Source: a virus. From it: DNA of 64,000 nt. This document shows positions 8,813 to 47,190 of the stretch, one piece after another. The translations under genes were made by a program, and so were the position numbers. Each line of letters begins with the position of its first letter. The first letter of the stretch is position 1. Below the pieces are notes generated by a model. The model was given only the letters and a program-made list of their open reading frames with translations, made no database searches and was not told the DNA's origin. The DNA lies in UHGV virus genome UHGV-0375936, one strand, 5' to 3'.

Positions 8813-8866
8813 TTTAATAGTCCTCTTTTAGGTTTGTTCAAATCAACTAAGGGTTATGTAAAAAAG

Positions 8867-9346
8867 TTAAAATAATGGCAAGTTACGCCATTGTCCTACC
8901 GAGTAAAAAGCTTTTGGATGTTTACGGATATACGCTTTCGCTTCTTCTGGCAACCAACGGTCACCCGCCAGTTTTTGTTGTGCAACAATTACCGCCATCA
9001 ACAAATACGGGTTTTTCGCACCGGGGAACTTTGCATTGGTTTCTAGCGCAATATCCAACATTGACGACCAGCCCAGTAATTTATGTTGCGCCGGTAAACG
9101 TTCTTCAATATACATCAGCCATTTCATGATTTGTTTAGGCTTATACGGACAGGTATAATTCGCCCAACACACCATGACGAACTTAATAGCCTTCGCAATC
9201 ACCCATACAGGGACAGTCACGAAAAGGCAGAAAATGGCCAACTGCGAGGCGGGCGCTTCGACAAAAGTAACCGCTACAAGAACCATACACAGTTCAAGTA
9301 CCACAAACCAAAAACGCGTTGGATAACGCCAAATGAATTTTATCAT
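8867..9346 (-). CDS. membrane protein
   Basis: Two long hydrophobic segments in N-terminal half. Confidence 0.5.
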   Translation of the reverse strand: MIKFIWRYPTRFWFVVLELCMVLVAVTFVEAPASQLAIFCLFVTVPVWVIAKAIKFVMVCWANYTCPYKPKQIMKWLMYIEERLPAQHKLLGWSSMLDIALETNAKFPGAKNPYLLMAVIVAQQKLAGDRWLPEEAKAYIRKHPKAFYSVGQWRNLPLF

Positions 9347-30860: not shown

Positions 30861-30873
30861 GGAGAATTTTTTG

Positions 30874-33800
30874 ATGAAAGCGTATCCTTACGATCCTCGG
30901 GGGACGAAAGCCGAGAATCACTTCTTAGAGGAGCGTATCATCGGGTCAGAGAACAACAACGATCGGGTGGTGATTTTAGACCACCGCCCGTTCTTTGAAG
31001 ATTTGGTCGTCAGACAACCAGGTTCAACCACCCCACTGAGTCGTGGGGTGGACTACGAACTGCAATATCAGCTGACGGAACTGGATGACTCGGTAGCAGC
31101 CAACGTGTATTGTGGGGTACACCTTATCAACCCATCCATCAAAGGCATCGTAACCTTTGAAGGACAAATGCTCGGCGGTACGTTCTACGACCCGTTTGTT
31201 GATATTCTCGATGAACTGGTGAAATATTTGAATAACCCTGTCAGTGCTGACTGGTTGTTATTAGACGGTAGACCATCGTTATATCCAGCGACGCCAGCAG
31301 CAACGTCCTGGGCGGATTTGCTGAACAAAAAATATTTAGCGTCGGCAGTTCACGATATTGAATTGAAAACCGACGACGCTAACCAGTTAATTAAAGACAA
31401 ATTAGCTGAAGTTAAAGCGTTAGTGACTGCGTTGGGTAAAGAAATCGAAGCATTTAACTACCCGGCACATATCGCGGAAACCAACCCACACAAAACCACA
31501 TCCGCGCAGATTAACGCGCATCCTGTTAACTTGAAAACACCCGACACCTTTATGGCGTACGGGTTAAAGTTGAAAGCGCTGACGGATGAGCTGAAAGCGT
31601 TTCGTTTACCCCAGTCAGTTATCGACACGTATATCTCTCACTGGATTTCTTCGGAAGTACGTGGCGTGTTTAACTGTACGGTGTCAGGAAACCGCGCACA
31701 GTTCCGTTCGAAAAACGGTGAGTCAGAAATCATTTTTGCCAACGATGGTTTTACGTTAAAATCCAACGGTTCTGTGGTATTAGCGGTAGGGCATCTGGAA
31801 GGTACGGGTGCAGGACGTTACATTAATTGGCGTGCCGGTAAAAACACATTACGCATCGAGTCAACAGGCGATGCTTTAGGGATGAACAAACTCACCCTGA
31901 ACGGTAACCCGTTACTGACTACCACGGCGTTGATGGAATACCAACAAGATCCAGATGCGGGTTCTGGTGGCGGTGGCGACCCTGATGACTCGAAGGTGTA
32001 CATTGAAGGCCGTAATGGGATTAGCTTTACCGGTAAAGGTTCTCGCGCCGACCCTATCGTGGGGACTATCGACCCAACAAAAGCGACAACCGCCGAAAAA
32101 GGCGTCGCTAAACTTAAAACAGGTAAAGGTACAGAAACGACTGGGGTTGCTGCAACTCCGGCTTCGTTAGCACCATACTCGACTGACCTATCGGGGTATG
32201 TGGCTAAAACGACCATGATTAACGGTAAGCCGATGAACGACGGCTCCAGGACAATCACGAAAGCTGATCTGGGGTTAGGGCAAGCGAATAACACCGCAGA
32301 CGTTGACAAACCGTTGTCTACCGAGTTAAATGCGGCGCTTAGCGGCTTAGCGGATGCAGGCCACCACCACGATTGGTCGGAACTCGGCATTTATAAAGCC
32401 TCGCAATCCGTTTACGGTATCGGTCGTTACGCAACTAACCAGAACGGTTTGGTTGAAAACCGTGCGGTAGTACCGAACATCTTAAAAGAACTTTCGGCGC
32501 GTTTAGATGTGGTTGCTGCGGCGATTGCAAACGCGAAAGAAGGATCGGTAACGGATTTCGCTGCGGTAAAAGGCGCAGAGTGGCGCTTTAATAGTCAGGG
32601 TACGGCAATCTCCGTTCAAGATTTGAAGTATTTCTATTTGCTGAACGGTACGAAAGCTGATAGCACCGTTACAGGTTCGATTGACCTGCAAACTACGCCG
32701 ATGTTTAACTGGTTCTCACCGAACAACCAAATTGAGACGACTTGGCCTACGGGGAAAGTGAGCGCTGGTAAGGGTATTAACTGGACAGGTATTGAAGAAC
32801 CACCACTAATGGGTTTCCAATCTGTTCCGGTAGGTAAAACTGCCTCACAGATGGGTGACCAGTCAGTTGTTACTGTGTTGGCCAAAACGCGGGTAAGGGC
32901 ACACCAGTCGAAGCTTTGGGTTTATGCCGCAGGGGGTGGTCCGGTTACAGTTTACATTAACGGTATCCAGGCAGCCACAGGCCAGTCTCCACTCGTTGCA
33001 GTGCATGAAACATCAGCAGACGTTGAAAACTACACCGTAGCGGTTAAAGCTGAGTGTAGCGACACAGCTAAATCCGCAGCGGTGCAATTCGAAATTTACG
33101 ACGGTGACTACCCCGTTTATTTCAGTGGCCCTGAAACGCGCGTAGAGCTTCTCCAAGAGTTTGTTACAACACACGTAGGGATTCGTCATTATCTGTACGT
33201 TAACATGCTCACAAGCTCTCTGTATTCGCGTACTGAGCCAATTCAGAGTGTTGCAGTTGATCCTGAGCGCGGTTATATCGGCTACGTTGATATTGTTGCC
33301 GGTGAGTCTTACGCGAATAAGAGCGTGAGTTTTGAAACCACGTTTGATTTCGGGAAAAGTGCCGAGGTTAGTGAACACATTGACACACGCAAAGCACACG
33401 GACTCAGCTCTGTAGACTGGACGTTAACGGATAACCCACGTTTCCCGTTATTAAATCGTGCGATTGCAGAGCCGAGAACGTGTATTTTTAGAAAAACGTT
33501 AACGGCCGGTACTGGTGACGTTTTTCATCTCGTGAGTCGTGGTCTTTATACTTACGCACATAACCAAAACGTGAAGTCCAGTCTTCAATACGTTGTGATA
33601 CCTGAAGGTGCTACACCGTATTGCTGGTTTACGCCGTTTAACCCGAAAGAAAACAACGCACCGACGTTCGAAGGTTCGTTTGTGTTCGACGTTGACGACG
33701 TCGGTGGAACACAAGCGCTCACGGCTGCACCGGATTTGGTGCTGTGTACGTCAACACAAGGTAGCAGCGTTAAACGTCGTTACGTACGTATTGACCTAAC

Positions 33801-35055
33801 TGCCAAAGCGTGTAAGCTGGGGATTGGTTCTCGTTCAGATTCTGCGGTTACGGATATCCCGTTAGTGATGGAGGAATCTGGGGAAACGGCGGTGGCGGCA
33901 ACGTTTAAGGATGTGTTGTTCAACGGCGAGGAAACCAACGCAGCGATACTCGACTTGATAGGCTGGGGTCCAAATAAAGACAAAATCTCTGCAAACCACG
34001 CGCCACGAGGTATGATTCGTTATCGTTACAACGTAAACACTCGGGTATTACGTTTAGCACTATCGTTCTCACAGTTCGGAACGACAACAGTTAAGCACCG
34101 CCAGTTGGAAATTGAATTTCCGTTTGATTTGGTGGATTACTTCACCGGTGACGGTGTAGGATTGTCGTTTAAAGAACTGTCTGCGAAATGCCGTGTAACG
34201 ATTAGCCACGCACTGATTGATCCGGTTACGACTAAAATCGATATTGATAAGTATCATTACCTACGCTCGTTATTTGAGTCGTATTTGGATGCATCTGTTG
34301 GTTATTTGGCTGATACCAAAGACGCCGACTTTAACCAGTCTGTGATTGACCCTGCGACTTATGAGATTAATCAGAAATACCGCGTTACCGAAAGCATTGC
34401 GCTGCCGACCGGTCAGGGAAGTGTTGCTGTTTCCCATGACGGTCAGTTACCTGCACAGTTCTTTGACCGTAAGCTGTCTCGCGGTGCTTTGATGGCCAAG
34501 AAAGGTGAACTTCATACTTCCTGGAACAATGAGTGGAGTACATCCAAAGCTGCCGCAAACCGGTATCGACATAAACTCATTCTGCGCTTTGCACAAGGTG
34601 CTGATAAACAACAGTACCGTGTTGCAAAAGTGACAGGAACGGTGAAGTGTAACTGGCCGGGCAAGGTGATTATCGGTGATGCTGGGAAGGACGCGTATGT
34701 ATCAGCTATCGATAGCGTGCCGTTTGCGCTTTCGACCAGCGCGGACACAGGTAAAGCAGTTACCCTTACGCCAAAGGATCTACGTGTAGGGCAGGACATT
34801 TATATTGTCTTAGAACCACCAGGCAATAATCCAGAAGGCTACGAGCTTAACTTTACCTGTTCGTTAGATGTCACTGACGAGAAAGGTGTCCGTCAAGACC
34901 AGCTCAATGCGCAGAGTTTCGAACTCCGTAGCGGCGAAAGTCAGTTCTTAATGGAGAAACGCAATCCGTACCACATCACGAGTAAAGCGTGGAAGTGGAT
35001 TCTGGCTGTACTGAAACGAGAACTTAACGGGAAGCAGTTAGGGGATCGTACTTAG
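30874..35055 (+). CDS. tail-fibre-like protein (paralog 2 of 4)
   Basis: 1394 aa from ATG after AAGGAGAA; shared N-terminal domain; repeat ATTAEKGVAKLKTGKGTETTGVAATPASL. Confidence 0.65.
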   Translation: MKAYPYDPRGTKAENHFLEERIIGSENNNDRVVILDHRPFFEDLVVRQPGSTTPLSRGVDYELQYQLTELDDSVAANVYCGVHLINPSIKGIVTFEGQMLGGTFYDPFVDILDELVKYLNNPVSADWLLLDGRPSLYPATPAATSWADLLNKKYLASAVHDIELKTDDANQLIKDKLAEVKALVTALGKEIEAFNYPAHIAETNPHKTTSAQINAHPVNLKTPDTFMAYGLKLKALTDELKAFRLPQSVIDTYISHWISSEVRGVFNCTVSGNRAQFRSKNGESEIIFANDGFTLKSNGSVVLAVGHLEGTGAGRYINWRAGKNTLRIESTGDALGMNKLTLNGNPLLTTTALMEYQQDPDAGSGGGGDPDDSKVYIEGRNGISFTGKGSRADPIVGTIDPTKATTAEKGVAKLKTGKGTETTGVAATPASLAPYSTDLSGYVAKTTMINGKPMNDGSRTITKADLGLGQANNTADVDKPLSTELNAALSGLADAGHHHDWSELGIYKASQSVYGIGRYATNQNGLVENRAVVPNILKELSARLDVVAAAIANAKEGSVTDFAAVKGAEWRFNSQGTAISVQDLKYFYLLNGTKADSTVTGSIDLQTTPMFNWFSPNNQIETTWPTGKVSAGKGINWTGIEEPPLMGFQSVPVGKTASQMGDQSVVTVLAKTRVRAHQSKLWVYAAGGGPVTVYINGIQAATGQSPLVAVHETSADVENYTVAVKAECSDTAKSAAVQFEIYDGDYPVYFSGPETRVELLQEFVTTHVGIRHYLYVNMLTSSLYSRTEPIQSVAVDPERGYIGYVDIVAGESYANKSVSFETTFDFGKSAEVSEHIDTRKAHGLSSVDWTLTDNPRFPLLNRAIAEPRTCIFRKTLTAGTGDVFHLVSRGLYTYAHNQNVKSSLQYVVIPEGATPYCWFTPFNPKENNAPTFEGSFVFDVDDVGGTQALTAAPDLVLCTSTQGSSVKRRYVRIDLTAKACKLGIGSRSDSAVTDIPLVMEESGETAVAATFKDVLFNGEETNAAILDLIGWGPNKDKISANHAPRGMIRYRYNVNTRVLRLALSFSQFGTTTVKHRQLEIEFPFDLVDYFTGDGVGLSFKELSAKCRVTISHALIDPVTTKIDIDKYHYLRSLFESYLDASVGYLADTKDADFNQSVIDPATYEINQKYRVTESIALPTGQGSVAVSHDGQLPAQFFDRKLSRGALMAKKGELHTSWNNEWSTSKAAANRYRHKLILRFAQGADKQQYRVAKVTGTVKCNWPGKVIIGDAGKDAYVSAIDSVPFALSTSADTGKAVTLTPKDLRVGQDIYIVLEPPGNNPEGYELNFTCSLDVTDEKGVRQDQLNAQSFELRSGESQFLMEKRNPYHITSKAWKWILAVLKRELNGKQLGDRT

Positions 35056-35093
35056 GACAGACTGCCTGCGGGCAGTTGTGTGTCCGTAGGTAA

Positions 35094-35130
35094 CCCCTCC
35101 CTGTAATGGGGAGGGGTATCCATTTTATTT
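35094..35130 (+). terminator. intergenic hairpin / possible attenuator
   Basis: CCCCTCCC-TGTAAT-GGGAGGGG hairpin with T-rich tail between fibre genes 2 and 3. Confidence 0.45.
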
Positions 35131-35149
35131 AAAAGTAGGAGTCTTTACG

Positions 35150-38100
35150 ATGCCGAGAGAAGACGCGGCGCAGTTTAACGGTACGCTAAGCACAACGACG
35201 TACCCTAACCGATTTAACGTGGTCATTCCGCCTGAAGGACCTTTTTATCGTATCGGATTAAAACTCACAGTAGCCGACGATACCGCGCCTAACGGACGTC
35301 GTACTCTGATTGAGGGGTTGGACTACTATTTAGGCTATTACTTTAAAGAACTCGCAGAAGCTGAACAAGATCAGATTTATGGCGGGTTTATGTTGCTTAC
35401 TGCAACAGAAATCGAATATGAGATTTTAGGGGTAGCACGTCAATACCGTGTACCGCAATCTGAAATCGGGAAGTTCTTAGTTCGTACTGACCTGAAAGAC
35501 CCACGTAACGTGGACTGGTCAGAGTTAATGGCGTATGCGCCAGTTATTCAACCTATCGATCCCCCTGCTAACTTAGAAGAAGCTATCCTGAGGGATGAGG
35601 TTGTTAAAGCGTTAAACGATATCCGTAAGAAAATCATTCAACGTTCAACAGAGTTAGATGCAGCGTTTACCGAAGTCACTAACCTGATTTACGAGAACGG
35701 TAAAAAGATTTTCGATGAAGAACTATACCAACACCACCTTAATCCTAACGCTCACCAGTATACGACCACTGATGTTGGTGCTCTTCCGGTTTTGGGACGT
35801 GCTGTTGACGCGACAAAAGCGTTTGGACTGACGATTGACCAGCTGGCTACGCTGATGGGTTCGGCGGGTATTGAGCAATCAGACGTTGATCAGTTAATAG
35901 GTGAAGCCCTCGGCACTGTTTACGGTCGTTGGGGCAGCACGAACGGTAACGAACTGACGTTTAAAACCGCAGGCGGACACATCATCAGTATCCGTGGTGA
36001 TAAGTGGTTAATTACCTCACCGCAACCGTTGGTGATTAAAGCAGACCAGGACAACAACGAATCGGGTTTGGCGGTTGAATTTAGTGCGGGGCTGAATACG
36101 CTTTGGGTACACTCTGGGACAGAACAAGATGTATTAGCGCCGGTTTACAACTCTGTGTATTTGGTTACACCAGAAATGGTGAACATGTACCTTACGTCTG
36201 TAACGTTACTTGAAGCAAATGCCTATTTCAAACCATCAGACACCGTAAAACCATACGGTACAGCGAAGCAGTCTAATCCGCTAACGTTGAACGCGAATAT
36301 CCCCACAGCAACCGAGTCGGTTTATGGGGTGTTTTCGATTACGAATATCGCAACCTCCGTAGCACTAGGCACTGCTATTTCCCAAAAGGCGGTGACCGAA
36401 TTAAAAGACCGGTTAGACTTGTACGTTGACGATGACTACACGGTTAACGGTAAAGGGTTTGTTAAGACAGGCGATAAAATGGTGTTAACCTTAACGAAAA
36501 CCGATTTCGGTATCGATAAGATGGATAACACCACGCCGATCGCTAAACCGGTAACAAAAGCGTTAGCGAATGTGCTGAAAAATAAAAGTTTGAAGGTGCA
36601 TACGCACACTACCGCCGATTTGGATAATGTCCCGATTGGTAGTGCGACCGTGGATGGTATCTTACAGCTGTGGGATGCGATTGATACCACGAATGATAAA
36701 GCCGTCACATCACGCCAAGGGTGGTTGTTCGCAAAAGAGATTAAGAAGGTCTCTGATAAACTGAATACCCTCTTGCCCGCATGGACAACGTCCGGGAGCA
36801 AATACACCAATAATTCGATATTGCCGATCTTGTCGATGGGTAATTACGAAGGTTATGGTAAAAACATGGATGCGCTCCAGATGGTTATAGGGGTACAACA
36901 AGGTAAGCTTTATGCTTTAATTAGTTCTAAATCTGCCCTTCCGGGAACTGAGGGTATTTATTACGCTGTTGCTGGGTTAAAAAACGACAAAAGTCTCGGT
37001 GAAATTTACAAAACAACTTTCCGTTATAAGCCGAAAGGGTTAGAGACGAATTATCCGGGGGTGGAACTAAAAGAAATTACCGTTACTGGCACCGAAGCAT
37101 TTATAGCGAAGGGCAGCGACGATAATTATTATTTAGTTAAACTGAACGGTTCAATGGATTACACCAAACATACCGATGTCAGGTTGGTAACTTTCTCAGA
37201 ATTTGTTTCAGAAACAACATGGGAATTTGTGCCGAATATGTTCATGGATCGTGTGGTCATAGCCGATAACGGCGTCTATGTTTTGCGTACGATGCTAATG
37301 GCCGATCTGAAAAACAATAGTCTGGTGGACTACATTAAGGATACTCCGCAACCTATGTTCCGTGTTGGGTTATTGCGACTTAATAAAACCGATCGGTTTG
37401 AACAGGTTGATTTAAGCTCTACACGAAAAATCGGTAAGTGTGCCGATTTGGTTGAACCTGGCGCGTTCGATGTAGATAATCCGAATACGAAGCGTCTTGC
37501 CTACTTCACTGCGGAAGGCAAAGCGTTGTGGACAGTGAATTTACAATTAACTAGAGGGGTGTCAAGATGGATAACGCCCGTTGTTAAGGACGGTCACTTG
37601 TTAACCGTCGGCGTGTCTGGCGTTTGTCTTGGTTTTTCTTCAACGAAAGGTACCACATTCGGGCCATGGAATGGTGCTTATCGTCTCGACCTATTAACCG
37701 GGGAGGTTGGGTTAGAGACAACTAACATCTTCCCAATCAAAATCGATACTACAGGTTGCTACTTAAAAGACGGAACAAAAATAGAGCTGAAATGGAAATG
37801 GGCTACTCGAAGTTCTGGCTATATGGCCGACAATAGAATCTGTGTCGGTGATATGGTTTATTCTTGCTGCTGTTCGACAGAAAAACAACTTGCACCGTCT
37901 CTCCATTACCAGAAACTCCCAGAAGGAGTTAGTTATCTGGACTATGTTAAGTTGAGTGCGGGGTATGAGGGGCAATCTACGTTTGAAAATCGGATAAACC
38001 CTGTGGTGGGTTCGGTGTGGAAACCGTCTATGACCTTCCCATTGTTCTTCCCAGGAACAAACAAAGTATGGCTTAAACATCAAAAAACGGCTTATTTCAT

Positions 38101-40336
38101 TGAAGCCGAATATGATAAAGATACGACTTATGGTTATCCTGGATACGGCGGGTTTGGACCAACATCCCGCCGTGTTGAAAAAAAAGCGAACGAATACGGC
38201 GTATTGACAAATATACCGCTGGTTGTTACGCCAGACATACCGAAAGGTCTACTAGATGGGGCTTACTTTATCGGTGCTGAAAGTAAACCATGTAAAGTTG
38301 TTTACGGTACCACTACGGTGGCTAGTGATCGGTTGTCTATCGATGCGGCAGAATGGGCGAAGTTGACTAATATTGTTCAGTCCAGCCAGTTCTCTGGGGC
38401 TTCTAACGGCAACGCCTATGAGCGGATTAGCGTAGCTAAGACCAAAAAGAACAACTACAGTTTGTCCTTTTGGGTGCTTGGTCAAACGATGTCTGGTGGT
38501 CCGCTTTGTATCGCGATAGTGAGTCTTATCTATAAAGACACTGACGGGGTAAATAAGTTTGCTTTTTACTTCTTTCAGGTAAAACCGACTATAACCAACG
38601 GGGTCATAAGGTTCGTTAGTTCGGAAGCGAGAATGATGACGTTCAGGGAAAAAGTGGCCAGTAACGCCATTAATCTCTCACCCACAGCTTTTAATGGTGA
38701 ACTTAAACAACGCTCCGGTCAAGTTTTCCTTTATTCGCAAGACGGACAAAAGTTCAGATTCTCAATACATAACCTGGTTGGCGGGAATCTTGTAGGATCA
38801 GAGATTTCTTTTGCTTTTGGGATAAACTTGACTAAAAAAGGAGAATGGTTTACCGGCGAAATTCATCGGGCGTGGGGCTATACGTATACGCTGAATAATA
38901 CATCTGAAGTCTATATACCCGATCTCTCGGGCATCGCGCTATTGACTTGTAACTCGGAAGATTTAAACGAGTTGTATCTCGGTGGCGAACAGTATAGAAT
39001 CTCTGATTTGTTTAACAAAAAATATACTGTTATCGATAAGATTATTATTGGCGGCGTACAAACACAGAGCGGTTGGAATTTCTATCTGACGGAGGAAACC
39101 GAGTTAAGTTTTGGAAATAAAAGATATACCGTTCCAAGATGGTCCGTTGATTTAAGCGATGAATTCCCGACTAATCACGCTAACCAGACATTCTACGTTT
39201 ATGCTGAAGTGGTCGGTTCTACTGCCCAATACCGCATCGGTTTAGAGCAGTTAGCTGATACCTCGTCGAGACTGTTTGTTGGGACAGTAACCACTGATTC
39301 GAACCGTATTACGGATATCAGTATCGATAAAGTAAAACGGTTAGGTCGTGTAAAAGAGCTGGAAAATCATGCCTCGGTTGTTGATCAGCACGATGTGGCG
39401 CAGGCGTTCGACAGGAAAACTGGTCCACTATTAACAGTGGTTAATAAACCCGTTAAAGCCATTACAGCATCTGCGAGCAAGGGTGCTGGGTATGTCGATG
39501 GCCAGAAATGGAATACGTTGTCCGGGATTGCAACGCGGCCCAGGTTGCCGGTACAGGAAACCTATTCAGGTTATAAAAGTATCAGCAGGGTGGCGTATGA
39601 GAACTGCGCTGACCAGTTCTGGCAGAAAGCGGTTGCTGCGAACGTTGCAGCGGCTACTGCTTCTGAGAACAAACAAGCAGCAACCGCGAACATGAAGTGG
39701 TTGGGTGCGTATACGAAACCGACTACCGGCGAGTATGCATATCTGGCATTGAGTCTGCGTGTTAAAGTACCTGGCGATCCTGGTACTACTAATCGTCGAC
39801 TGAAAATCAGGCTTGCGGCCCCGACAGGTATAACTCAAGTTCGTTACGGGCTAAATCAGTCTGGCGGTACGATGACTGAACAGACAGTAACGCTAACTGC
39901 TAACAGTTACCTGGAAAAAGAACACGCGGGATTTAAGCCAGCCGCCGAAGTCCGCCTTCATGCTACGTTTGTCATTCCAAAAAATGAATACGATAGCTAC
40001 CGGACCAAATTTGGTGCTGTTCAGCTGATTGACGTTGAGACGAACACTGTCATTAAACAGACAGATATCGACACACCGTTTATCGTGTACACCGCCACAG
40101 AGCAAGCGGCACAATCTGGTTTGGTGTATAAAGCGGTTAAGAGTCAGTTTCGTCAACTCCCGGCTCAACCTGTCGTCATTGTAACTGATGGACAGACAGG
40201 GACTACACCACCGGTGAAAACCGCATATTCTGACGGCACGTTAACGGTCTACGTGGCAACCACGTACGATGCGGTTAACCCAGCACAAACTCGCGATATC
40301 GATAAGCTCCAGTTCAATCTTATGTTTACATCTTAA
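35150..40336 (+). CDS. tail-fibre-like protein (paralog 3 of 4)
   Basis: 1728 aa; AGGAG RBS; shared N-terminal domain (PPEGPFYRIGL...GLDYYLGYY). Confidence 0.65.
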   Translation: MPREDAAQFNGTLSTTTYPNRFNVVIPPEGPFYRIGLKLTVADDTAPNGRRTLIEGLDYYLGYYFKELAEAEQDQIYGGFMLLTATEIEYEILGVARQYRVPQSEIGKFLVRTDLKDPRNVDWSELMAYAPVIQPIDPPANLEEAILRDEVVKALNDIRKKIIQRSTELDAAFTEVTNLIYENGKKIFDEELYQHHLNPNAHQYTTTDVGALPVLGRAVDATKAFGLTIDQLATLMGSAGIEQSDVDQLIGEALGTVYGRWGSTNGNELTFKTAGGHIISIRGDKWLITSPQPLVIKADQDNNESGLAVEFSAGLNTLWVHSGTEQDVLAPVYNSVYLVTPEMVNMYLTSVTLLEANAYFKPSDTVKPYGTAKQSNPLTLNANIPTATESVYGVFSITNIATSVALGTAISQKAVTELKDRLDLYVDDDYTVNGKGFVKTGDKMVLTLTKTDFGIDKMDNTTPIAKPVTKALANVLKNKSLKVHTHTTADLDNVPIGSATVDGILQLWDAIDTTNDKAVTSRQGWLFAKEIKKVSDKLNTLLPAWTTSGSKYTNNSILPILSMGNYEGYGKNMDALQMVIGVQQGKLYALISSKSALPGTEGIYYAVAGLKNDKSLGEIYKTTFRYKPKGLETNYPGVELKEITVTGTEAFIAKGSDDNYYLVKLNGSMDYTKHTDVRLVTFSEFVSETTWEFVPNMFMDRVVIADNGVYVLRTMLMADLKNNSLVDYIKDTPQPMFRVGLLRLNKTDRFEQVDLSSTRKIGKCADLVEPGAFDVDNPNTKRLAYFTAEGKALWTVNLQLTRGVSRWITPVVKDGHLLTVGVSGVCLGFSSTKGTTFGPWNGAYRLDLLTGEVGLETTNIFPIKIDTTGCYLKDGTKIELKWKWATRSSGYMADNRICVGDMVYSCCCSTEKQLAPSLHYQKLPEGVSYLDYVKLSAGYEGQSTFENRINPVVGSVWKPSMTFPLFFPGTNKVWLKHQKTAYFIEAEYDKDTTYGYPGYGGFGPTSRRVEKKANEYGVLTNIPLVVTPDIPKGLLDGAYFIGAESKPCKVVYGTTTVASDRLSIDAAEWAKLTNIVQSSQFSGASNGNAYERISVAKTKKNNYSLSFWVLGQTMSGGPLCIAIVSLIYKDTDGVNKFAFYFFQVKPTITNGVIRFVSSEARMMTFREKVASNAINLSPTAFNGELKQRSGQVFLYSQDGQKFRFSIHNLVGGNLVGSEISFAFGINLTKKGEWFTGEIHRAWGYTYTLNNTSEVYIPDLSGIALLTCNSEDLNELYLGGEQYRISDLFNKKYTVIDKIIIGGVQTQSGWNFYLTEETELSFGNKRYTVPRWSVDLSDEFPTNHANQTFYVYAEVVGSTAQYRIGLEQLADTSSRLFVGTVTTDSNRITDISIDKVKRLGRVKELENHASVVDQHDVAQAFDRKTGPLLTVVNKPVKAITASASKGAGYVDGQKWNTLSGIATRPRLPVQETYSGYKSISRVAYENCADQFWQKAVAANVAAATASENKQAATANMKWLGAYTKPTTGEYAYLALSLRVKVPGDPGTTNRRLKIRLAAPTGITQVRYGLNQSGGTMTEQTVTLTANSYLEKEHAGFKPAAEVRLHATFVIPKNEYDSYRTKFGAVQLIDVETNTVIKQTDIDTPFIVYTATEQAAQSGLVYKAVKSQFRQLPAQPVVIVTDGQTGTTPPVKTAYSDGTLTVYVATTYDAVNPAQTRDIDKLQFNLMFTS

Positions 40337-40376: not shown

Positions 40377-41576
40377 ATGGCCTCCATTGTATACCAATAC
40401 CCTTTAGATTTAACGGGAACCCTAACCTCTAACGCCGTGGAGCGTCAGGTTACGTTAGGTACAGGTAAAGTTAACCGTGCGTTTGCTTTTCCTGACGGTC
40501 CGTTTTATGCTGATACGTTCCGCTTGCGGGTTGCTAACCGCCCAGATGCGACGTATGAGCGCGGAACGGACTATGAGTTGATTTTTGCACACCCGGCTTA
40601 CGAGAAATTGACGAAGAACCGGGAAGTGGTAATGGCGGTTGTTGTAACGAACACCGCGATTCCGACCGATATCACGGTATCGGCGCAAGTAGTCGGGGGC
40701 CCGCAGTCGGCAAACGTGACTGCGATAGAACAGGCGATTGCTGAGTTGAATCTCGATAATCGAACTGTTGGCTTTAAAGACTTGCGAAATGTTCCTGATA
40801 CATTTCCTTCGGCACCAACGTATAAAGACGTCGGCGATATTTACGGCTTCGAATACATCATTACAGTGCTCGCCGGTATTAAAGATGCGATAACTGCTGG
40901 CGATGCTGTACAGCTTGAGAACATCAAAGCGATTCTCGAAAGCCTGAAAAACGATTTCCTGGACGCGCTGAACGCGCACATTAACGCCACGGGTAACGTC
41001 CACCATCTGGATATTCACCAGGTTAACGGGTTAACAGAAACGGAGATCCGTGCACTGATCCGTGACGTACAGTCTGCCATCGATGCAACCATTACTGATA
41101 TTAATGCGTTGAAGAAAGCAGACGAAGCGTTAGGAAAACGTATTGATGCTGTTGTCAAATCTCTGGAAGCGTGGAACGACCAACTTAACGTCGTTGCACA
41201 AAACTACCAGAAAATGGCACTGGCAATGGCGAACCTAAACTCGTTAGTGTTACAGTTACAGAAAAATATCAACGATCTGAGCACCAAACTCAACCAAGCG
41301 ATTCAACGTATTGCTGCGTTAGAACAGCGGGGTAATGAGTCCGATCAGAAAATTGATAAACTGCAACAAAACCTGGATGCGCTTAAACAGCAGGTTAATA
41401 ATAACACGAACGCAATCAGTCAGGCGAATCAGAACCTACAAAACCATATTGCGGCAGACAACCCACACACAGGCTATCTCCACAAGAAATACGGTGGTGT
41501 GGTTCAGGCTCCAGTGCACGTTAACGCTAACTTGACGTCCCGTGATGACGTTCAGGCAGAAGCGGGTACGAAATAA
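40377..41576 (+). CDS. tail-fibre-like protein with coiled coil (paralog 4 of 4)
   Basis: ATG after AAGGAG; N-terminus FPDGPFYADTFRL...GTDYELIF shares the fibre N-domain; long heptad-like C-terminal region. Confidence 0.6.
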   Translation: MASIVYQYPLDLTGTLTSNAVERQVTLGTGKVNRAFAFPDGPFYADTFRLRVANRPDATYERGTDYELIFAHPAYEKLTKNREVVMAVVVTNTAIPTDITVSAQVVGGPQSANVTAIEQAIAELNLDNRTVGFKDLRNVPDTFPSAPTYKDVGDIYGFEYIITVLAGIKDAITAGDAVQLENIKAILESLKNDFLDALNAHINATGNVHHLDIHQVNGLTETEIRALIRDVQSAIDATITDINALKKADEALGKRIDAVVKSLEAWNDQLNVVAQNYQKMALAMANLNSLVLQLQKNINDLSTKLNQAIQRIAALEQRGNESDQKIDKLQQNLDALKQQVNNNTNAISQANQNLQNHIAADNPHTGYLHKKYGGVVQAPVHVNANLTSRDDVQAEAGTK

Positions 41577-41643
41577 CTTTATTACAGGAGGAACTATGCT
41601 TATGGGCGTAGTCCTCCATTCTTTTTTATTTTAAGGATACGTG

Positions 41644-42039
41644 ATGGCGATCAGTGTTAAAAATGTACGTGACCGAATCACCAACGTAGAGAACCAAATG
41701 GCAACTGGCCCACGTGTTGATCCGCAAGTTGCGTCGAAAGCACATAATGCCGCCGACACTTTTTCGGGTTGGACGCCAAGTCGGTTAGACTGCGGGGGAA
41801 GTTGCAGCTGGACGTGCTCAAACGGCTGTACGCACGGCTGTACGAGTTGTTCGGGCACCTGTACGTCAGTATGTGTAGGTAGCTGCTCCTCTGCGTGCGG
41901 TAACCAGTGTACTGGATGTAGTTCAACATGTTCCGGCGGCTGTTCAGGTTGCAGTGGGACCTGTGGTGGTGCTTGCTCGGGCCGTTGTTCTACGGGTTGT
42001 TCTGGTGCTTGCTCTGGTGGCTGTTCTGGCCCAACCTAA
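41644..42039 (+). CDS. Cys-rich peptide A, candidate RiPP precursor
   Basis: AAGGA RBS; about 50-aa leader then about 80-aa core with about 21 Cys, mostly C-x3-C (CGGSCSWTCSNGCTHGC...); track ORF starts 3 nt earlier at GTG. Confidence 0.6.
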   Translation: MAISVKNVRDRITNVENQMATGPRVDPQVASKAHNAADTFSGWTPSRLDCGGSCSWTCSNGCTHGCTSCSGTCTSVCVGSCSSACGNQCTGCSSTCSGGCSGCSGTCGGACSGRCSTGCSGACSGGCSGPT

Positions 42040-42049
42040 GAGGTGAAAA

Positions 42050-42448
42050 ATGGCAATTGGATTACCTGCGCTACAAGCGCGGCTAAATAACATTGACAAC
42101 ACTGCATTGAAGAATACGGGTGCAGTGCAAAACTATATTCGTGGGAAAGCGACGAACAACGCAGACTTATTCGGTGGACAAGCTCGCAACCATTACGACT
42201 GTGGTGGGAGCTGTAGCTGGACCTGTTCGAGCTGTTCTGGTGGTTGTACAGGGAACGCATCAGGCGGCTGTGGTTCTTCGTGTTCTGCAAACTGTGTATC
42301 AGGTTGCAGCGCAGGCTGTAGCGGATGTTCGAATACATGTTCTGGTGGCTGCTCAGGAAGCTGTACGGGGAGTTGTTCTAACTCGTGTGTGGGAAACTGT
42401 TCTTCAGGCTGCTCGGGCAGTTGTTCTGGTGGGTGTTCTGGGAGGTAA
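42050..42448 (+). CDS. Cys-rich peptide B, candidate RiPP precursor
   Basis: GAGGTG RBS, 10 nt after peptide A stop; core DCGGSCSWTCSSCSGGC... with about 20 Cys. Confidence 0.6.
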   Translation: MAIGLPALQARLNNIDNTALKNTGAVQNYIRGKATNNADLFGGQARNHYDCGGSCSWTCSSCSGGCTGNASGGCGSSCSANCVSGCSAGCSGCSNTCSGGCSGSCTGSCSNSCVGNCSSGCSGSCSGGCSGR

Positions 42449-42450
42449 TT

Positions 42451-42657
42451 GTGATTAGCCTTAAGAACCTTCGTGATCGATTAGTAACAGCGGAAGGGTA
42501 TATTACGACCGCTAACGCAAACAACTATATTGCAAACCAGGGCACCGTGTCTTCAACCAATAACCTTGCCGGTTTACCTTTAAGCCATTATAACTGTAAC
42601 GGCGGATGTAGCTGGTCGTGTAGCGGTAGCTGTAGTAAAGGCGCGGGGGGAAGGTAA
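42451..42657 (+). CDS. short Cys-rich peptide C, candidate RiPP precursor
   Basis: GTG start 5 nt after GGAGG, 2 nt after peptide B stop; leader VISLKNLRDRL resembles peptide A; core NCNGGCSWSCSGSCSKG. Confidence 0.5.
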   Translation: MISLKNLRDRLVTAEGYITTANANNYIANQGTVSSTNNLAGLPLSHYNCNGGCSWSCSGSCSKGAGGR

Positions 42658-42806
42658 CTAAGCCCTCCAGTGGTAGTATGTCTATTACGCAATAACCGAG
42701 TTAATCGTACGGGTTTACTACTGAGTTTCAAGTTACCGGTAGGCAATGGTGCGGTGGTTTCTATACCCTGAATGTCCGTTTGACCGTGAAATAATTGGAG
42801 CAATCA

Positions 42807-43694
42807 ATGAAGAATGATTTACATTTAGCATACAAAACAATTTTCAATCATCCACTTCACATTTCTTCCCCTGATTCCGTACGTGCACACTTAGCAGATG
42901 AAGTTCGTCTGCTGACTCAGTTGCCGGGCGAATGGCCTAAAGTACGCGGACGTTTCTTTACCGATCGTAAAAACTATCGTGTAGAAAATACGTTTAAGAT
43001 TCGTGATCTGACGGCAGAAAGTGTGGTGGTCTTTACCGGTGACTCCGAGTTGCGTGGTAAACTGGTTGCGGGTAAATATTTCTTTAGTGACGGGATTTTG
43101 AATAACTCCGTAGATATGGAATTGTTCTTTACCCCATTTGAAGAAATGGGCGCAAAACCGGTTGCCCGTCGTTGGTGGTCACCGGATTACTTAGGCTCGT
43201 TCCCGTATTTCTTTACCCTGGTAACACCAGAAACGAAGAACTATTTCGATACGGAATCGTATATCGAAATTGAAGGGTACGAAGCGTTAGGGATTAATTG
43301 CTTAGCGGATTTAATGGCGTATAGCTATAAGTTCGTGTGGGATCGTGAACGTTCCGTGTGGGTTGCCCTGACGGATGAACATGAAATCACAAAACGCATC
43401 CGTAAGCCTTGGATGCAGCATTTGATTCAAACGCGTATTGGCGAGCATCCGTCAACAGAAGCGGATCTGGCAAAACTCCTTAGTTTCTTAATGACGAAAG
43501 TCACGTTAACTGACGAAGAGAAAGCAGCAGTGTCGGCGGTGTTGGACCGTAACGTAACGTTAGCGGATTTAGAACGTTTAAATGTCCGTTATAAAGACCT
43601 TAACCGTATTTTGGAAGCGTATAACTCTCCATTCTTGTTAACCCCTGGTGCTAACGTAGACGACGATCCTTTGTTCGCCATTGATTATATTTAA
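42807..43694 (+). CDS. hypothetical protein, candidate RiPP accessory
   Basis: ATG at 42807 with GGAG RBS; 296 aa between precursors and radical SAM genes; no motif recognised. Confidence 0.55.
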   Translation: MKNDLHLAYKTIFNHPLHISSPDSVRAHLADEVRLLTQLPGEWPKVRGRFFTDRKNYRVENTFKIRDLTAESVVVFTGDSELRGKLVAGKYFFSDGILNNSVDMELFFTPFEEMGAKPVARRWWSPDYLGSFPYFFTLVTPETKNYFDTESYIEIEGYEALGINCLADLMAYSYKFVWDRERSVWVALTDEHEITKRIRKPWMQHLIQTRIGEHPSTEADLAKLLSFLMTKVTLTDEEKAAVSAVLDRNVTLADLERLNVRYKDLNRILEAYNSPFLLTPGANVDDDPLFAIDYI

Positions 43695-43715
43695 AAACGA
43701 CCGGAGTCACCTGCA

Positions 43716-44639
43716 ATGACAACCAATGCAGAACCAAGGTTATCGAATCGTTTATACGATAAACCCACCGTATTGTCCGTAGTCGCTACGTCCAAGTGTA
43801 ACCTGGATTGTAGCTTCTGCGGTGGAGCCTATTACATGAATCGTGAAGATTCTCCGCGAGAGTTTCAACGTGAGCGAATTTTGGAAGCGCTGGAAGCTAA
43901 TCCAACCATTACCGAAATTCAGTGGACGGGTGGTGAGCCATTACTGGCAACCCGTAAAATTGAGGCGTTTGTTGACGAATTAAAAGTGATTCGTCCAGAA
44001 CTCAAACACCAGTTGTATACCAATGGCTTAAAGATGCGTAAATCGCATCTCCCGTTGCTAAAACAGTTTGACAATGTCTACGTTAGCATCGATGGGTTTA
44101 AGTCGTCTGAGCGCCCGTTTATGCGCTTTATTGACGAAGGCTGTTACGAAGCACTGGAAACGATCTACGAGCTGGATAATGTCCAGACTTGGGGTGTCCT
44201 GACACGGGACCGTTTAGGGGACAAACGCTGGCACGAAGATATTATTCAGCTGCACAGCGCGATTTACCATTACGGTTTCCGTGCAATGACGTTACTCTTA
44301 GATGCGAAAATGCCAAAACCTTTATCGCCTGACCACGTCATGAACTTTATTTACGGCTACTATCAGGTTCAGGATAACATTGAACGACTGAATGTAGTAA
44401 ATAGTCGTGAATGCGGCTTTACAGTAAGTAAAGTGTTTGAAGAAGGGTGTAACGTTTGCAGCGAAAGTCTTTGGATTAATGCAGACGGCGGTGAGCACCA
44501 ACTCCAGAATGCACCTAACGTTCTGGAATCGGGATGTAACCAACTGGCCTTCTCTATCGGTGTAGAGGCGTACGAATATATTCGTCGCGTAGTGATGGCA
44601 GGGCGTAATAGAGGGGCGGCAAATGAGTCAAGTAAATGA
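43716..44639 (+). CDS. radical SAM enzyme
   Basis: CNLDCSFC (CxxxCxxC) near N-terminus, GGEPLL SAM-binding motif, four more Cys in the C-terminal third. Confidence 0.8.
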   Translation: MTTNAEPRLSNRLYDKPTVLSVVATSKCNLDCSFCGGAYYMNREDSPREFQRERILEALEANPTITEIQWTGGEPLLATRKIEAFVDELKVIRPELKHQLYTNGLKMRKSHLPLLKQFDNVYVSIDGFKSSERPFMRFIDEGCYEALETIYELDNVQTWGVLTRDRLGDKRWHEDIIQLHSAIYHYGFRAMTLLLDAKMPKPLSPDHVMNFIYGYYQVQDNIERLNVVNSRECGFTVSKVFEEGCNVCSESLWINADGGEHQLQNAPNVLESGCNQLAFSIGVEAYEYIRRVVMAGRNRGAANESSK

Positions 44640-45945
44640 ATTCCCTAAGCAGTTAACGTATCAGATCGTAACCAACCTTTCGTGTAACCTGGACTGCGAA
44701 TATTGTTACGAACGTAAGTACCCGCGTAACAACAAAGCGGCGGATATTGTTGATTTCTTACACGCCTGTTTTGAACGTGATAAAAACGAACCGAATGTTG
44801 AAGTTATTATCGACATTATCGGTGGTGAGCCGTTCATGCAGCCTAAACTGCTGCTGGCTGCGTTTGAAACCGCTGAGCAGTTGTGTAAAGAACACAACCG
44901 ACCGTTTATGTTTAGTATTTCCACGAACGGAACGCTGTTAGATCGTCCGTTGAACCGTGAGATCGTAGAACGTTGGAAAGATAAACTTTCGGTTGGGGTT
45001 TCGATTGACGGCTTACCTGAGTCCCATGACCGTTATCGTATCTTCACAACAACACGCCAGGGTTCTTACGAAGCCGCAGTACGTGGCTATAACTACTTAA
45101 AAGAGGTTGGCATTGCAGAGCTCGGCGTAAAAGCAACCTTTACGTTAGAAACGCTGCCGTTCTATGCTGCGGGGATGAAGTCATTAATTGACATTACTGG
45201 CGGTGGGACAATTTCTGGAAACGTAACTTTCGAAGACGTTATGCCGCGTAGCATGGCGACATCAATCGCTTTACAGATGATGGATGTGATCGATTATTGG
45301 GTTGAGAAAGGATTACACACCAACCCACGTAATATCTTATCGCACATCATTCCAGAAGGGTTGGATTTCGATACGATTTGGGAACCGAACTGGCGTGACC
45401 AGTTACTGTATAATGACACCGTACGGTTGAACCCAGAACGTTTACGTCCGTTCTGTGGGACGTTAACGCACATGACGTGCTTAGGATTTGACCGTAAGAT
45501 CTTTGGCTGTAACCGCTTTATGTCAACGGTAACGTCGCGTTCTGCGGTGTTTGAGTTGGTAGGTCGGGAATTCGTCAGTCTGGACAACGGTAAGCTGCTA
45601 GAAGAGATTCAAACGCAATATACCAACTACCCAGAGACCTGTTTAGGTTGTCCGATGAAACACGCTTGTGGTAGCTGTGCTGCGGCTTCTTACGAGAACG
45701 GGGAAGGAACGTTAGAAGACCGTAAGGCGTATCACGCTGAACGACGTCAGTGCGGCTGGACGACAGCGAAACTGATGGTGGCGGAATACTGGAAACAGAA
45801 GATGGGTACGACGTCAGCAAAAGCGTTCCATGACACGAGCATGTGTTATTGCCCACGCTGTGTTCGTGAACGTGCCCAAAAGGAAAAATTATTAAGAGAA
45901 GCCAAAGATGAAACCAATTCTGATCAACAATATTACGAAGCGTAG
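44623..45945 (+). CDS. radical SAM enzyme with SPASM-like domain
   Basis: CNLDCEYC, IGGEPF, STNGTLL, and C-terminal CLGCPMKHACGSCAA Cys cluster; 17-nt overlap with upstream radical SAM gene. Confidence 0.8.
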   Translation: MSQVNEFPKQLTYQIVTNLSCNLDCEYCYERKYPRNNKAADIVDFLHACFERDKNEPNVEVIIDIIGGEPFMQPKLLLAAFETAEQLCKEHNRPFMFSISTNGTLLDRPLNREIVERWKDKLSVGVSIDGLPESHDRYRIFTTTRQGSYEAAVRGYNYLKEVGIAELGVKATFTLETLPFYAAGMKSLIDITGGGTISGNVTFEDVMPRSMATSIALQMMDVIDYWVEKGLHTNPRNILSHIIPEGLDFDTIWEPNWRDQLLYNDTVRLNPERLRPFCGTLTHMTCLGFDRKIFGCNRFMSTVTSRSAVFELVGREFVSLDNGKLLEEIQTQYTNYPETCLGCPMKHACGSCAAASYENGEGTLEDRKAYHAERRQCGWTTAKLMVAEYWKQKMGTTSAKAFHDTSMCYCPRCVRERAQKEKLLREAKDETNSDQQYYEA

Positions 45946-46480
45946 AATTCGACTTCTGGATAAGTTTCTGGAAAACAGTAAGCTATTCGGTTGTTATGTG
46001 GTGATTAACGGTGAAGATTTTACCGATGACGTAAAACGCTTACTGATTCGTCACGGCGTGACTGTAATCATCCCAATGTACTGCACCGAACTTACTGACC
46101 TGTCGGTCGCGGAAATTGAAAAACGTAACCCAGGGTTTGAAGAACGGGTATTGGATTTCCCACGTCACAAAATTGCGTTTCTACGCCGCTCTTTAAGCGA
46201 ACCCAGCGCAGAATCTATCACTGTGTTGGCATTGTCCTTCCCAGGCATTACTATCTTCGCAACACGTAACCCGAACTCACCGATTGATGGGTTTTACGAT
46301 GAGCGGGAGAAATTTAATAGCGTGATTTTTCCTGAACTAACGCCAGAAGAATGTCAGGGTATCCGTATCGATTGGGAATCGGACTTCGACACAAGATTCC
46401 GTCATATCGATTTTGAACTGTTAATCGAATTAGGGTTGATTAAAGGAGACGATGAATGTCTGCTACTGGTGAAGGCTTAA
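45908..46480 (+). CDS. hypothetical protein
   Basis: 190-aa ORF overlapping the end of the radical SAM gene. Confidence 0.5.
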   Translation: MKPILINNITKRRIRLLDKFLENSKLFGCYVVINGEDFTDDVKRLLIRHGVTVIIPMYCTELTDLSVAEIEKRNPGFEERVLDFPRHKIAFLRRSLSEPSAESITVLALSFPGITIFATRNPNSPIDGFYDEREKFNSVIFPELTPEECQGIRIDWESDFDTRFRHIDFELLIELGLIKGDDECLLLVKA

Positions 46481-47127
46481 CGAAAGAAGAAATCCGTCGC
46501 CGTTATTTTGCGCACGATTTACCGATTGACCGTCATGGTAACTACATGGAGAAAATCGGTAGCGAAGATCACGGCCGTACAGGGTTTTGTGCATTACTGC
46601 ACTATAAGTTGATTGATGGGATGTCTGATCGCGAAGCATTGGAGCAAATGCGTAACTACGACATGTCTGAAATCGAAGCACGGTTTACGCTACAGAAAGC
46701 GAAAGACTTTGTTAACGACACGCTGGGAATTGACCTGGAAGAGATTCGTACGGGGTTACGTTCCACCGTACGGTACATCTTTACCGATGTTCAGAAAATT
46801 CTAAGCGCTTTGGAATTCCGTTATCAGGATGCGCGCTATGCTGAGATTCAGGTAGGTGATTTCACTTTCCAGGCAGATGAGAAGTCACAGGTAGCACTGA
46901 GTCGTTATATCCAGTCAGAAACTGCGCCAGCGTATTGGTTAACGGCTAACAACACCCGTATCGAACCGTTTACGTTAGAACAGTGCAAGACGTTGCTGGC
47001 AGCAATCGTTGAGCGTGATCAAAGACTACACCACGCAATGTCTGAGCAGAAAAGAGAAGTCAGGGCTTGGGCTGAAGCACGTGATTACGATTCGATAAAA
47101 GCGTTTGCGTTAGAGCAAGGGCTGTAA
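46456..47127 (+). CDS. hypothetical protein
   Basis: 223-aa ORF overlapping previous gene; last gene before bidirectional terminator. Confidence 0.5.
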   Translation: MSATGEGLTKEEIRRRYFAHDLPIDRHGNYMEKIGSEDHGRTGFCALLHYKLIDGMSDREALEQMRNYDMSEIEARFTLQKAKDFVNDTLGIDLEEIRTGLRSTVRYIFTDVQKILSALEFRYQDARYAEIQVGDFTFQADEKSQVALSRYIQSETAPAYWLTANNTRIEPFTLEQCKTLLAAIVERDQRLHHAMSEQKREVRAWAEARDYDSIKAFALEQGL

Positions 47128-47134
47128 TCGACAG

Positions 47135-47190
47135 CGAAAAAAACAGTATACCTACCTCCCGTAATAGGAGGTAGGTATTTTTATTTTTTC
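47135..47190. terminator. bidirectional Rho-independent terminator
   Basis: 12-bp perfect stem ATACCTACCTCC-CGTAATA-GGAGGTAGGTAT flanked by A-run and T-run. Confidence 0.7.

Follow-up and report, generated by a model that had tools for sequence, protein, structure and literature searches.

What two radical S-adenosylmethionine (SAM) enzymes do in the tail-fiber region of a phage, and on which substrate they act, are the questions raised by a gene cassette at positions 41644-47127 of the virus genome UHGV-0375936. The window analyzed here is a 64,000-nucleotide stretch of this genome and belongs to a SPN3US-like jumbo phage; the metagenome contig IMGVR_UViG_3300029126_000001 is 100% identical to it. 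The cassette contains eight co-oriented open reading frames (ORFs), all of which were found on the + strand, tightly spaced, as described in an earlier note made from the sequence alone. These ORFs encode three small Cys-rich proteins (pep1, pep2, and pep3), an orphan protein (unk295), the radical SAM enzymes rSAM-A and rSAM-B, a second orphan (unk190), and a protein with a DUF4376 domain. The note viewed the locus as a maturation cassette resembling those for ribosomally made peptides with post-translational modifications (RiPPs). The pairing of Cys-rich substrates with an enzyme that resembles thioether-forming maturases (PapB, TIGR04115, and CteB) was upheld, whereas no signature of a leader protease, an exporter, or a RiPP recognition element (RRE) was detected in any of the eight cassette proteins. 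Judged from sequence comparisons, the cassette is best read as a phage-fiber version of the system composed of a CXXX-repeat target and a radical SAM/SPASM maturase, and pep1-3 probably do not make up a diffusible RiPP.

The Small CXXX Proteins

The two genes that open the cassette, pep1 (41644-42039, + strand) and pep2 (42050-42448, + strand), encode CXXX-repeat proteins of 131 and 132 residues that contain 21 and 20 Cys, respectively. The N-terminal part of pep1 is 49 residues long and is followed by the junction DCGGSCSWTC. The third gene, pep3 (42451-42657, + strand), encodes a short paralogue of 68 residues with 4 Cys and has a GTG start immediately preceded by the ribosome-binding site GGGAGG. 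Its sequence comprises no more than the N-terminal part and the junction NCNGGCSWSCSGSC. Of the three tandem Cys-rich peptides described in the earlier note, pep3 is thus a short, junction-only version.

Within the set of CXXX proteins, 87% of the Cys-Cys spacings are C-X3-C and 11% are C-X2-C, and the consensus of the repeat is C-[ST]-G-[GST]. The repeat region is essentially devoid of charged or aromatic residues except for one invariant Trp, and the sulfatase-type motif C/S-x-P-x-R is absent from the CXXX proteins. The junction motif N..L.G(Q)....Y.C..(G)CSW[ST]C is shared by the three paralogues and their metagenomic relatives, and its CSW[ST]C portion is invariant, even in the nearly repeat-free pep3.

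A search for the peptide family matched pep1-3 to phrog_6085 with E-values of 1e-24 to 1e-40 (1.6e-40 for pep1 and 3.9e-24 for pep3). The TIGR04114 (tSAM_targ_Cxxx) scores fall just short of the cutoff of 20 bits, at 19.4 bits for pep2 and 14.4 bits. Relatives such as P0004, which is 58% identical to pep2, and P0010 carry the precomputed assignment PF27846 (tSAM_targ_Cxxx_rpt). By these near-threshold matches, pep1-3 look like C-[ST]-G-x repeat proteins akin to those described by TIGR04114 and PF27846. In the AlphaFold2 model of pep2, two N-terminal helices appear at moderate confidence and the repeat region has no confident fold, with a predicted local distance difference test score (pLDDT) of ~40. 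This result fits a domain that needs modification or oligomerization. A sequence search of the PDB with the CXXX family gave no hit beyond a marginal match to NOWA (E-value 0.83).

Synonymous sites of the small ORFs are saturated relative to SPN3US (proportion of synonymous differences, pS, ~0.75), and the proportion of nonsynonymous differences (pN) is 0.10-0.22, which indicates strong purifying selection. The best conserved of the three is pep3, which is 90% identical to its SPN3US counterpart with a nonsynonymous divergence (dN) of 0.10. The order of gp167, the three small genes, and the next five genes is unchanged in 18 of the 18 SPN3US-like loci retrieved. Saturated pS with low pN, the conserved order, and the phrog_6085 matches together identify the small ORFs as real genes.

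In GenBank, a relative of pep2 is encoded by 62 jumbo phages, whose hosts are Salmonella, Erwinia, Escherichia, Cronobacter, and Proteus, and it is always "hypothetical" or unannotated. For a large number of related records, the entry at the small-gene match is "none". All three CXXX genes are unannotated in the SPN3US record (NC_027402, designated L001, reverse complement, 7950-8979; also JN641803, designated L002). SPN3US gp166 (ACQ60_gp100) is a wrong-frame ORF of 111 residues that lies over pep2 (L001 8426-8761).

The Radical SAM Enzymes

The enzymes rSAM-A (43716-44639, + strand; 307 residues; motif CNLDCSFC) and rSAM-B (44623-45945, + strand; 440 residues; motif CNLDCEYC) both belong to the radical SAM superfamily, as had been proposed from their CxxxCxxC motifs. 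The CX3CX2C cluster is present in each, and the Pfam profile Radical_SAM (PF04055; gathering cutoff of 29.5 bits) is matched with 53 and 57 bits, respectively. The GGEP and TNG motifs are conserved among the relatives of both enzymes. At the DNA level the enzyme genes are ~72% identical to those of Salmonella phage SPN3US and its relatives.

The best NCBIfam E-value for rSAM-B is that of the PapB maturase (NF047865; 1.2e-33). The TIGR04115 profile follows at 6.5e-33 and aligns with residues 10-371 over 343 of its 359 positions. Weaker matches were obtained for HxsB, QhpD, SCIFF, anSME, other peptide-modifying SPASM enzymes, and cyclophane-forming maturases. The closest match in the PDB is CteB (5wgg; 4.7e-24). 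The bit scores are far below the curated cutoff of every family, including TIGR04115 (114.7 vs 350) and PapB (116.8 vs 340), and the chemistry of rSAM-B is therefore not confidently transferable from the named families.

There is no N-terminal extension in rSAM-B, which starts at the radical SAM core (C21). The conserved Cys residues are 21, 25, and 28 and a further eight at positions 278, 286, 296, 340, 343, 349, 352, and 377. The latter eight include a CX2CX5CX2C motif and do not vary even in relatives with an identity as low as 37%. The C-terminal domain matches positions 1-86 of the 93 in TIGR04085 with 25.9 bits (cutoff of 27; E-value 1e-5), and no match to the Pfam SPASM profile PF13186 was found in rSAM-B. 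The conserved residues fit the SPASM-like Cys cluster ascribed to this enzyme in the earlier note, and the domain score is close to the threshold. From these comparisons rSAM-B is a probable cross-linking maturase. The 83 C-terminal residues of rSAM-A gave no family match and contain no recognizable SPASM/twitch domain; the Cys residues of this region are only partly conserved and are absent from a fused version of the enzyme found in the T7-like locus L003.

Roles in cofactor or nucleotide metabolism (MoaA, QueE, NrdG, and viperin) were considered and rejected. The corresponding matches are limited to the first ~110 residues of the core and are for this reason generic. A role in antiphage defense was likewise rejected, the PADLOC models giving only generic matches to the viperin core. 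The homologues in phage SPFM2 carry the automatic labels "albA" and "moaA". Two IMG/VR contigs, L008 (4575-5486) and L022, with an rSAM-B that is 93% identical, have an extra rSAM-A paralogue of 303 residues between pep1 and pep2. These contigs contain three radical SAM genes each, and the C-terminal end of their pep2 is divergent.

Linkage of Enzyme and Substrate

A search from rSAM-B retrieved 73 viral loci, and a search from the CXXX motif retrieved 80. At every viral locus with a full-length, uncut relative of rSAM-B, a CXXX ORF on the same strand adjoins the enzyme. Conversely, a maturase is located within ~0-2.5 kb at 68 of the 80 CXXX loci, and in 11 of the remaining 12 the contig breaks off on the flank that should hold the maturase. 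In the window, pep1-3 are positioned 0.8-2.6 kb upstream of the enzyme on the same strand, in keeping with the TIGR04115 pattern of an enzyme encoded beside a protein with a Cys at every fourth residue.

The loci differ in architecture. In the canonical type, the repeat protein is encoded just downstream of a single, longer enzyme, which scores 388-408 bits on TIGR04115 (cutoff of 350), and the N-terminal repeats give way to a conserved domain of ~110 residues at the C-terminal end. In the window type, the repeats come after the junction motif at the C-terminal end, and the repeat proteins are encoded upstream of the enzymes. The enzyme of this type scores 115-157 bits on TIGR04115, and a second radical SAM enzyme and a homologue of unk295 are present at most of the loci examined. 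Viral enzymes with 150-274 bits on TIGR04115 fall between the two types. In L003, both radical SAM enzymes are fused in one protein of 668 residues with rSAM-A as the N-terminal half, and so rSAM-A and rSAM-B appear to be obligatory partners and not separate maturases for separate peptides. A third architecture was observed in L174-L236, many of which are from IMG/VR sample 3300045988. The proteins of this group contain 375-386 residues with the CXXX region in the middle, starting from about residue 128, and a TIGR04115-like enzyme is found ~1 kb downstream of each.

At all phage loci examined, the module lies in the tail-fiber or baseplate region, and this holds across four virion types, those of jumbo myoviruses and of P2-like, lambda-like, and T7-like phages. 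The cassette of the jumbo myovirus follows the homologues of gp168-170 and gp167. In the T7-like loci L003-L005, the module comes after a protein with the tail-fiber N-terminal domain PF03906 and a collagen-repeat protein, and before the terminase. It follows a lambda J-like central fiber in L026 and is placed between a fiber gene and a P2-like sheath gene in L029. In the canonical locus L035, it follows genes for a baseplate wedge, a baseplate protein, and a tail collar fiber, and the canonical members L031, L039, and L040 are also in phage tail modules.

The CXXX domain is also joined covalently to fiber-like proteins. In other phages the junction and the CXXX domain form the C-terminal end of fiber-like proteins of 255-568 residues, and the N-terminal parts of several such fusions match tail-fiber PHROGs or hold collagen-like or fiber-type repeats. 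Tail-fiber PHROGs are matched by the N-terminal parts of the fusions in L025, L029, P0021, and P0006 (phrog_5073 for the latter two). An association with fibers is thus observed both as fusion to fiber domains and as location in tail modules.

The podophage contigs L003-L005 show an apparently split tail fiber (L003 8921-13336), made up of a PF03906 adaptor of 229 residues, a collagen-repeat protein of 118 residues, and a CXXX protein of 206 residues. The CXXX gene is followed by a gene for a unk295-like protein and then by that for the 668-residue enzyme fusion. The same cassette as in the window is present on the Logan contigs L006 and L240 (L240 2271-16131), where CXXX proteins of 119-122 residues and small ORFs are accompanied by a protein of 289 residues, radical SAM enzymes of 291 and 407 residues, and a protein of 172 residues. 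A third radical SAM gene (394 residues), an Acb2/Tad1-like gene, and a Cpn60 chaperonin gene are found nearby.

Among bacterial genomes, searched with one per species, no fiber-type relative was found, and the canonical type was seen in only one Ruminococcaceae metagenome-assembled genome. The ENA contig NODE_145 (L241, 7521-13784), apparently bacterial, encodes several CXXX peptides, a radical SAM enzyme of 406 residues, and dedicated TatA and TatC proteins of the twin-arginine translocation (Tat) pathway. The one of these CXXX peptides that was inspected, P0023, has a twin-arginine (RREFFK) signal. The locus represents a cellular form of the system that is linked to export.

Accessory Proteins, Flanking Elements, and Virion Proteomics

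The orphan unk295 (42807-43694, + strand; 295 residues) is a core partner in the fiber-type cassette. The AlphaFold2 model is confident (pLDDT 88) and corresponds to no known fold. The family is rare, with 50 clusters among 1.84 billion representatives, and the part in common is mainly C-terminal and helical. We propose that unk295 may act as a substrate docking or scaffold protein.

Two further genes after the enzymes had been listed as unknowns, which is accurate for unk190 (45908-46480, + strand; 190 residues; phrog_7988), an orphan accessory protein, but not for the last gene (46456-47127, + strand), whose product carries DUF4376 (PF14301; 5e-11). No match to unk190 was found in Pfam, NCBIfam, or the PDB, and a homologue is encoded after rSAM-B in L006 (1e-12). 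The DUF4376 protein has weak matches to the tail-fiber PHROGs 1807 and 2837 and no match in a sequence search of the PDB. A function in fiber assembly is proposed for this protein.

The gene that precedes the cassette (40377-41576, + strand) encodes a coiled-coil fiber protein that is 78% identical to the SPN3US virion protein gp167 and whose Pfam matches are coiled-coil-type noise only. Farther upstream are homologues of the SPN3US fiber/baseplate paralogues gp170, gp169, and gp168. These three consecutive giant genes (26538-40336) encode proteins of 1440, 1394, and 1728 residues, respectively, and are much less conserved among relatives (26-51% identity) than the cassette is. The cassette thus follows a tail-fiber gene, as previously stated, with the correction that a conserved hairpin and U-run (41587-41633, + strand) are located between that gene and pep1. 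This terminator- or attenuator-like element has a predicted folding energy of -21.4 kcal/mol (z score of -4.3), and 0 of 200 shuffled sequences were equally stable. The counterpart in SPN3US (L001 7892-7940; -23.7 kcal/mol; z score of -4.5) has the same fold with different stem bases. Termination, attenuation, or RNA stabilization are possible functions of the hairpin, by which cassette expression would be set apart from that of the fiber genes.

On the other side, the strong bidirectional terminator reported at the end of the cassette was located on both strands at 47148-47178, where a stem of 12-13 bp has a T-run on either side. The eight ORFs are therefore bracketed by two structured elements, both strong hairpins. 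A Shine-Dalgarno-like sequence precedes every cassette start, and the intergenic gaps are a few nucleotides or overlaps. The 149-nucleotide gap between pep3 and unk295 contains no significant RNA structure (z score of +0.8). A scan for sigma-70 promoters gave 11 sites where 11.1 were expected and hence no enrichment; the phage probably has its own RNA polymerases. No tRNA genes were found within the window.

In purified SPN3US virions, gp167-170 were detected and none of gp161-165 was (PMC5694885, Suppl. Table 1). SPN3US gp161 is the homologue of the DUF4376 protein. The absence of gp161-165 from virions fits maturation or assembly factors. The same data are uninformative on pep1-3, because the unannotated genes were not in the search database.

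Comparison with Known Systems

The CXXX-repeat target and radical SAM system (TIGR04114, TIGR04115, and PF27846) resembles the cassette in having a Cys at every fourth residue in a protein encoded next to a radical SAM/SPASM enzyme. The window type differs from it by the second radical SAM enzyme, by the orphan unk295, and by the low TIGR04115 score of rSAM-B. That system is defined bioinformatically. In a full-text literature search, which did not cover every journal, no study of the present system, of the biochemistry of TIGR04115, or of the radical SAM modification of phage fibers was found, nor was any characterized homologous cluster, in keeping with the earlier impression that the layout is without a characterized precedent.

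The ranthipeptide maturase PapB installs the Cys-to-Asp thioethers of freyrasin in CX3D repeats and, as in the cassette, represents a SPASM-type enzyme that acts on tandem Cys motifs spaced by four residues. The window differs in that its repeats are without Asp/Glu and belong to a protein with fiber features rather than to a leader-core peptide, and rSAM-B falls outside the PapB family by score. CteB, which forms the Cys-to-Thr γ-thioether of the SCIFF peptide thermocellin (PDB 5wgg and 5why), is the closest solved structure. Residues of the Ser/Thr type, which CteB uses as acceptors, are abundant in the repeats of the window. Only the radical SAM core aligns with CteB (residues 11-197 of rSAM-B), and CteB has an N-terminal RRE that rSAM-B lacks. 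The SCIFF maturase profile TIGR03974 gives 59.5 bits against a cutoff of 425, which places rSAM-B outside this family as well.

The closest functional precedent is QhpD/QhpC, in which thioethers are formed in the γ subunit of quinohemoprotein amine dehydrogenase. Here, radical SAM cross-linking is applied to a small Cys-rich polypeptide that is kept as a structural part of a protein complex and does not turn into a natural product. The match of rSAM-B to TIGR03906 has an E-value of 6.4e-17 and a score of 61.3 bits against a cutoff of 453; the acceptors of QhpD are Asp/Glu, and the context is the biogenesis of a periplasmic enzyme. The His-Xaa-Ser system also combines a SPASM-type enzyme (HxsB) and a short radical SAM enzyme (HxsC) with a substrate of tandem short repeats. 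HxsB is matched by rSAM-B at 3.9e-21 (75 bits vs a cutoff of 370) and HxsC by rSAM-A at 4.5e-10 (39 vs 268), but the repeat differs and the Hxs system is without a phage context.

The Cys-rich domains of cnidarian minicollagens and NOWA provide an analogy only, with no detectable homology. In these proteins, CX3C-repeat modules on fibrous, collagen-like proteins confer covalent toughness. The phage relatives in L029 and L003 likewise combine collagen-like repeats with a CXXX domain. The cnidarian cross-links are disulfides made in an oxidizing compartment, whereas the phage proteins are made in a reducing cytoplasm and are accompanied by radical SAM enzymes.

Proposed Function and Alternatives

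The general definition of a RiPP cluster, with a leader-core precursor, an RRE, and leader removal or export, does not describe this cassette. The parallel to two-peptide sactibiotics drawn in the earlier note has to be abandoned, as there is no protease, exporter, immunity gene, or RRE and the CXXX domain is fused to fiber-like proteins. The absence of a protease, an exporter, and an RRE, the lack of Asp/Glu, the fiber fusions, and the tail-module location favor reading pep1-3 as structural proteins with a RiPP-style modification. On balance we lean slightly toward pep1-3 being small fiber-associated structural proteins that are cross-linked by the enzymes, probably via thioethers, in the reducing cytoplasm.

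Each protein would consist of an N-terminal part, short and helical, that serves in attachment or oligomerization, the conserved junction, and a C-[ST]-G-x repeat tail without a hydrophobic core of its own. Disulfides would not be able to form in the reducing cytoplasm of the host. The pair of rSAM-A and rSAM-B, aided by docking or scaffolding through unk295, would instead place covalent cross-links along the repeat, most likely Cys-derived thioethers by analogy with PapB, CteB, and QhpD. The product would be a rigid rod or knob on the fibers that resists reduction and proteases. In this scheme unk190 and the DUF4376 protein would serve as assembly helpers, and the enzymes would remain outside the virion.

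Several observations weigh against this assignment. The virion proteomics of SPN3US, searched against an annotation that omits the genes, give pep1-3 no direct place in the virion. The scores of rSAM-B are far under every curated family cutoff, and the repeat regions of pep1-3 contain neither of the acceptors used by PapB and QhpD, Asp and Glu. The CXXX proteins of the jumbo phages are free-standing and of the size of RiPP precursors, and a conserved terminator-like hairpin stands between the cassette and the fiber genes. One uncut CXXX locus, L199 (8386-9504), has no maturase. A bacterial relative pairs Tat-signal CXXX peptides with TatA/TatC, a context that might equally suit a product loaded with a cofactor or metal, and the family is accordingly not restricted to phage fibers. 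The contig of L199 is viral and of high G+C content, and its CXXX-pattern ORF may be an out-of-frame artifact.

Some of these observations would be accommodated if pep1-3 were leader-core precursors of a true diffusible RiPP, whose modified cores would leave the cell by lysis or export and act as a bacteriocin, a signal, or an antidefense molecule. Precursors of 68-132 residues that are conserved in the N-terminal region and rich in Cys at the C-terminus would suit such a product, as would enzymes whose closest relatives are RiPP maturases and which are not in SPN3US virions, and a hairpin that separates the cassette from the fiber genes. We nevertheless regard a diffusible product as improbable. 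A leader peptidase, a transporter, an immunity gene, and an RRE are all absent from the cassette, and the GG ahead of the repeats is not conserved. Long fiber-like proteins, to which the logic of a leader is inapplicable, have the same junction and preceding region, and the tail-fiber/baseplate setting recurs at all phage loci examined, in unrelated phages. That the modified CXXX proteins are transient scaffolds or chaperones for giant fibers, absent from the mature particle, is highly improbable. Phage fibers often require dedicated chaperones, and the counterparts of the neighboring DUF4376 and orphan proteins are not part of the SPN3US virion, but other phages have the CXXX domain within the chain of the fiber-like protein itself, and it seems unlikely that a radical modification, costly in energy, would be spent on a scaffold that is then discarded.

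A different objection concerns the chemistry rather than the location of the product. The CXXX proteins could be structural and carry epimerization, C-methylation, formylglycine-type oxidation of Cys/Ser, or a Trp cross-link, or the repeats could mainly bind metal or Fe-S clusters, with enzyme action confined to the junction. Thioether formers (PapB, CteB, and the QhpD family) are the best relatives of rSAM-B both over the full length and by structure, an array of donors is the simplest account of a Cys in every fourth position, and the CXXX proteins have no sulfatase-type motif; for these reasons a chemistry other than thioether formation is considered rather unlikely. It would be in keeping with the position of rSAM-B below all family cutoffs and its additional matches to anSME and cyclophane-forming maturases, and with repeats that offer no Asp/Glu acceptors. 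It would also account for a CSW[ST]C junction that is invariant even in the almost repeat-free pep3 and for the finding of rSAM-A and unk295 only with junction-type substrates. Export of the bacterial relatives by Tat points in the same direction, Tat export being typical of proteins exported already folded or cofactor-loaded.

Implications

Cross-linked, fiber-associated CXXX proteins would have consequences beyond this phage. Radical SAM/SPASM maturases have been studied as makers of peptide natural products, and the same logic is apparently at work within the tail-fiber module of lytic phages. Extended to the other loci, the proposal is that phages of several morphotypes use radical SAM chemistry to build a ladder of nondisulfide cross-links in a CXXX domain at the tips of their tail fibers. 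We offer this broader statement tentatively, at somewhat less than even confidence. If it is true, this would be the first case known to us of a radical post-translational modification that enzymes install on a structural or receptor-binding protein of a virion, and it would represent a new protein architecture in which thioethers take the place of a hydrophobic core. Should the cross-linked repeat turn out to be a compact scaffold that withstands reduction, it may interest protein engineers.

The system is directly testable, since amber-mutant genetics and published mass-spectrometry data sets are available for SPN3US. The existing proteomic data are blind to three conserved genes that are missing or misframed in the reference annotations. 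SPN3US-like jumbo phages are a genetic model and candidates for phage therapy, and the proposed function would give a role to two of their conserved "radical SAM" genes and to four orphans. It would explain how a Cys-rich domain without a core, from a virus assembled in a reducing cytoplasm, is stable outside the cell. The orphan TIGR04114/TIGR04115 families would gain a biological role, and the bioinformatically defined "CXXX-repeat RiPP" family would, if the proposal is true, be largely a phage tail-fiber maturation system.

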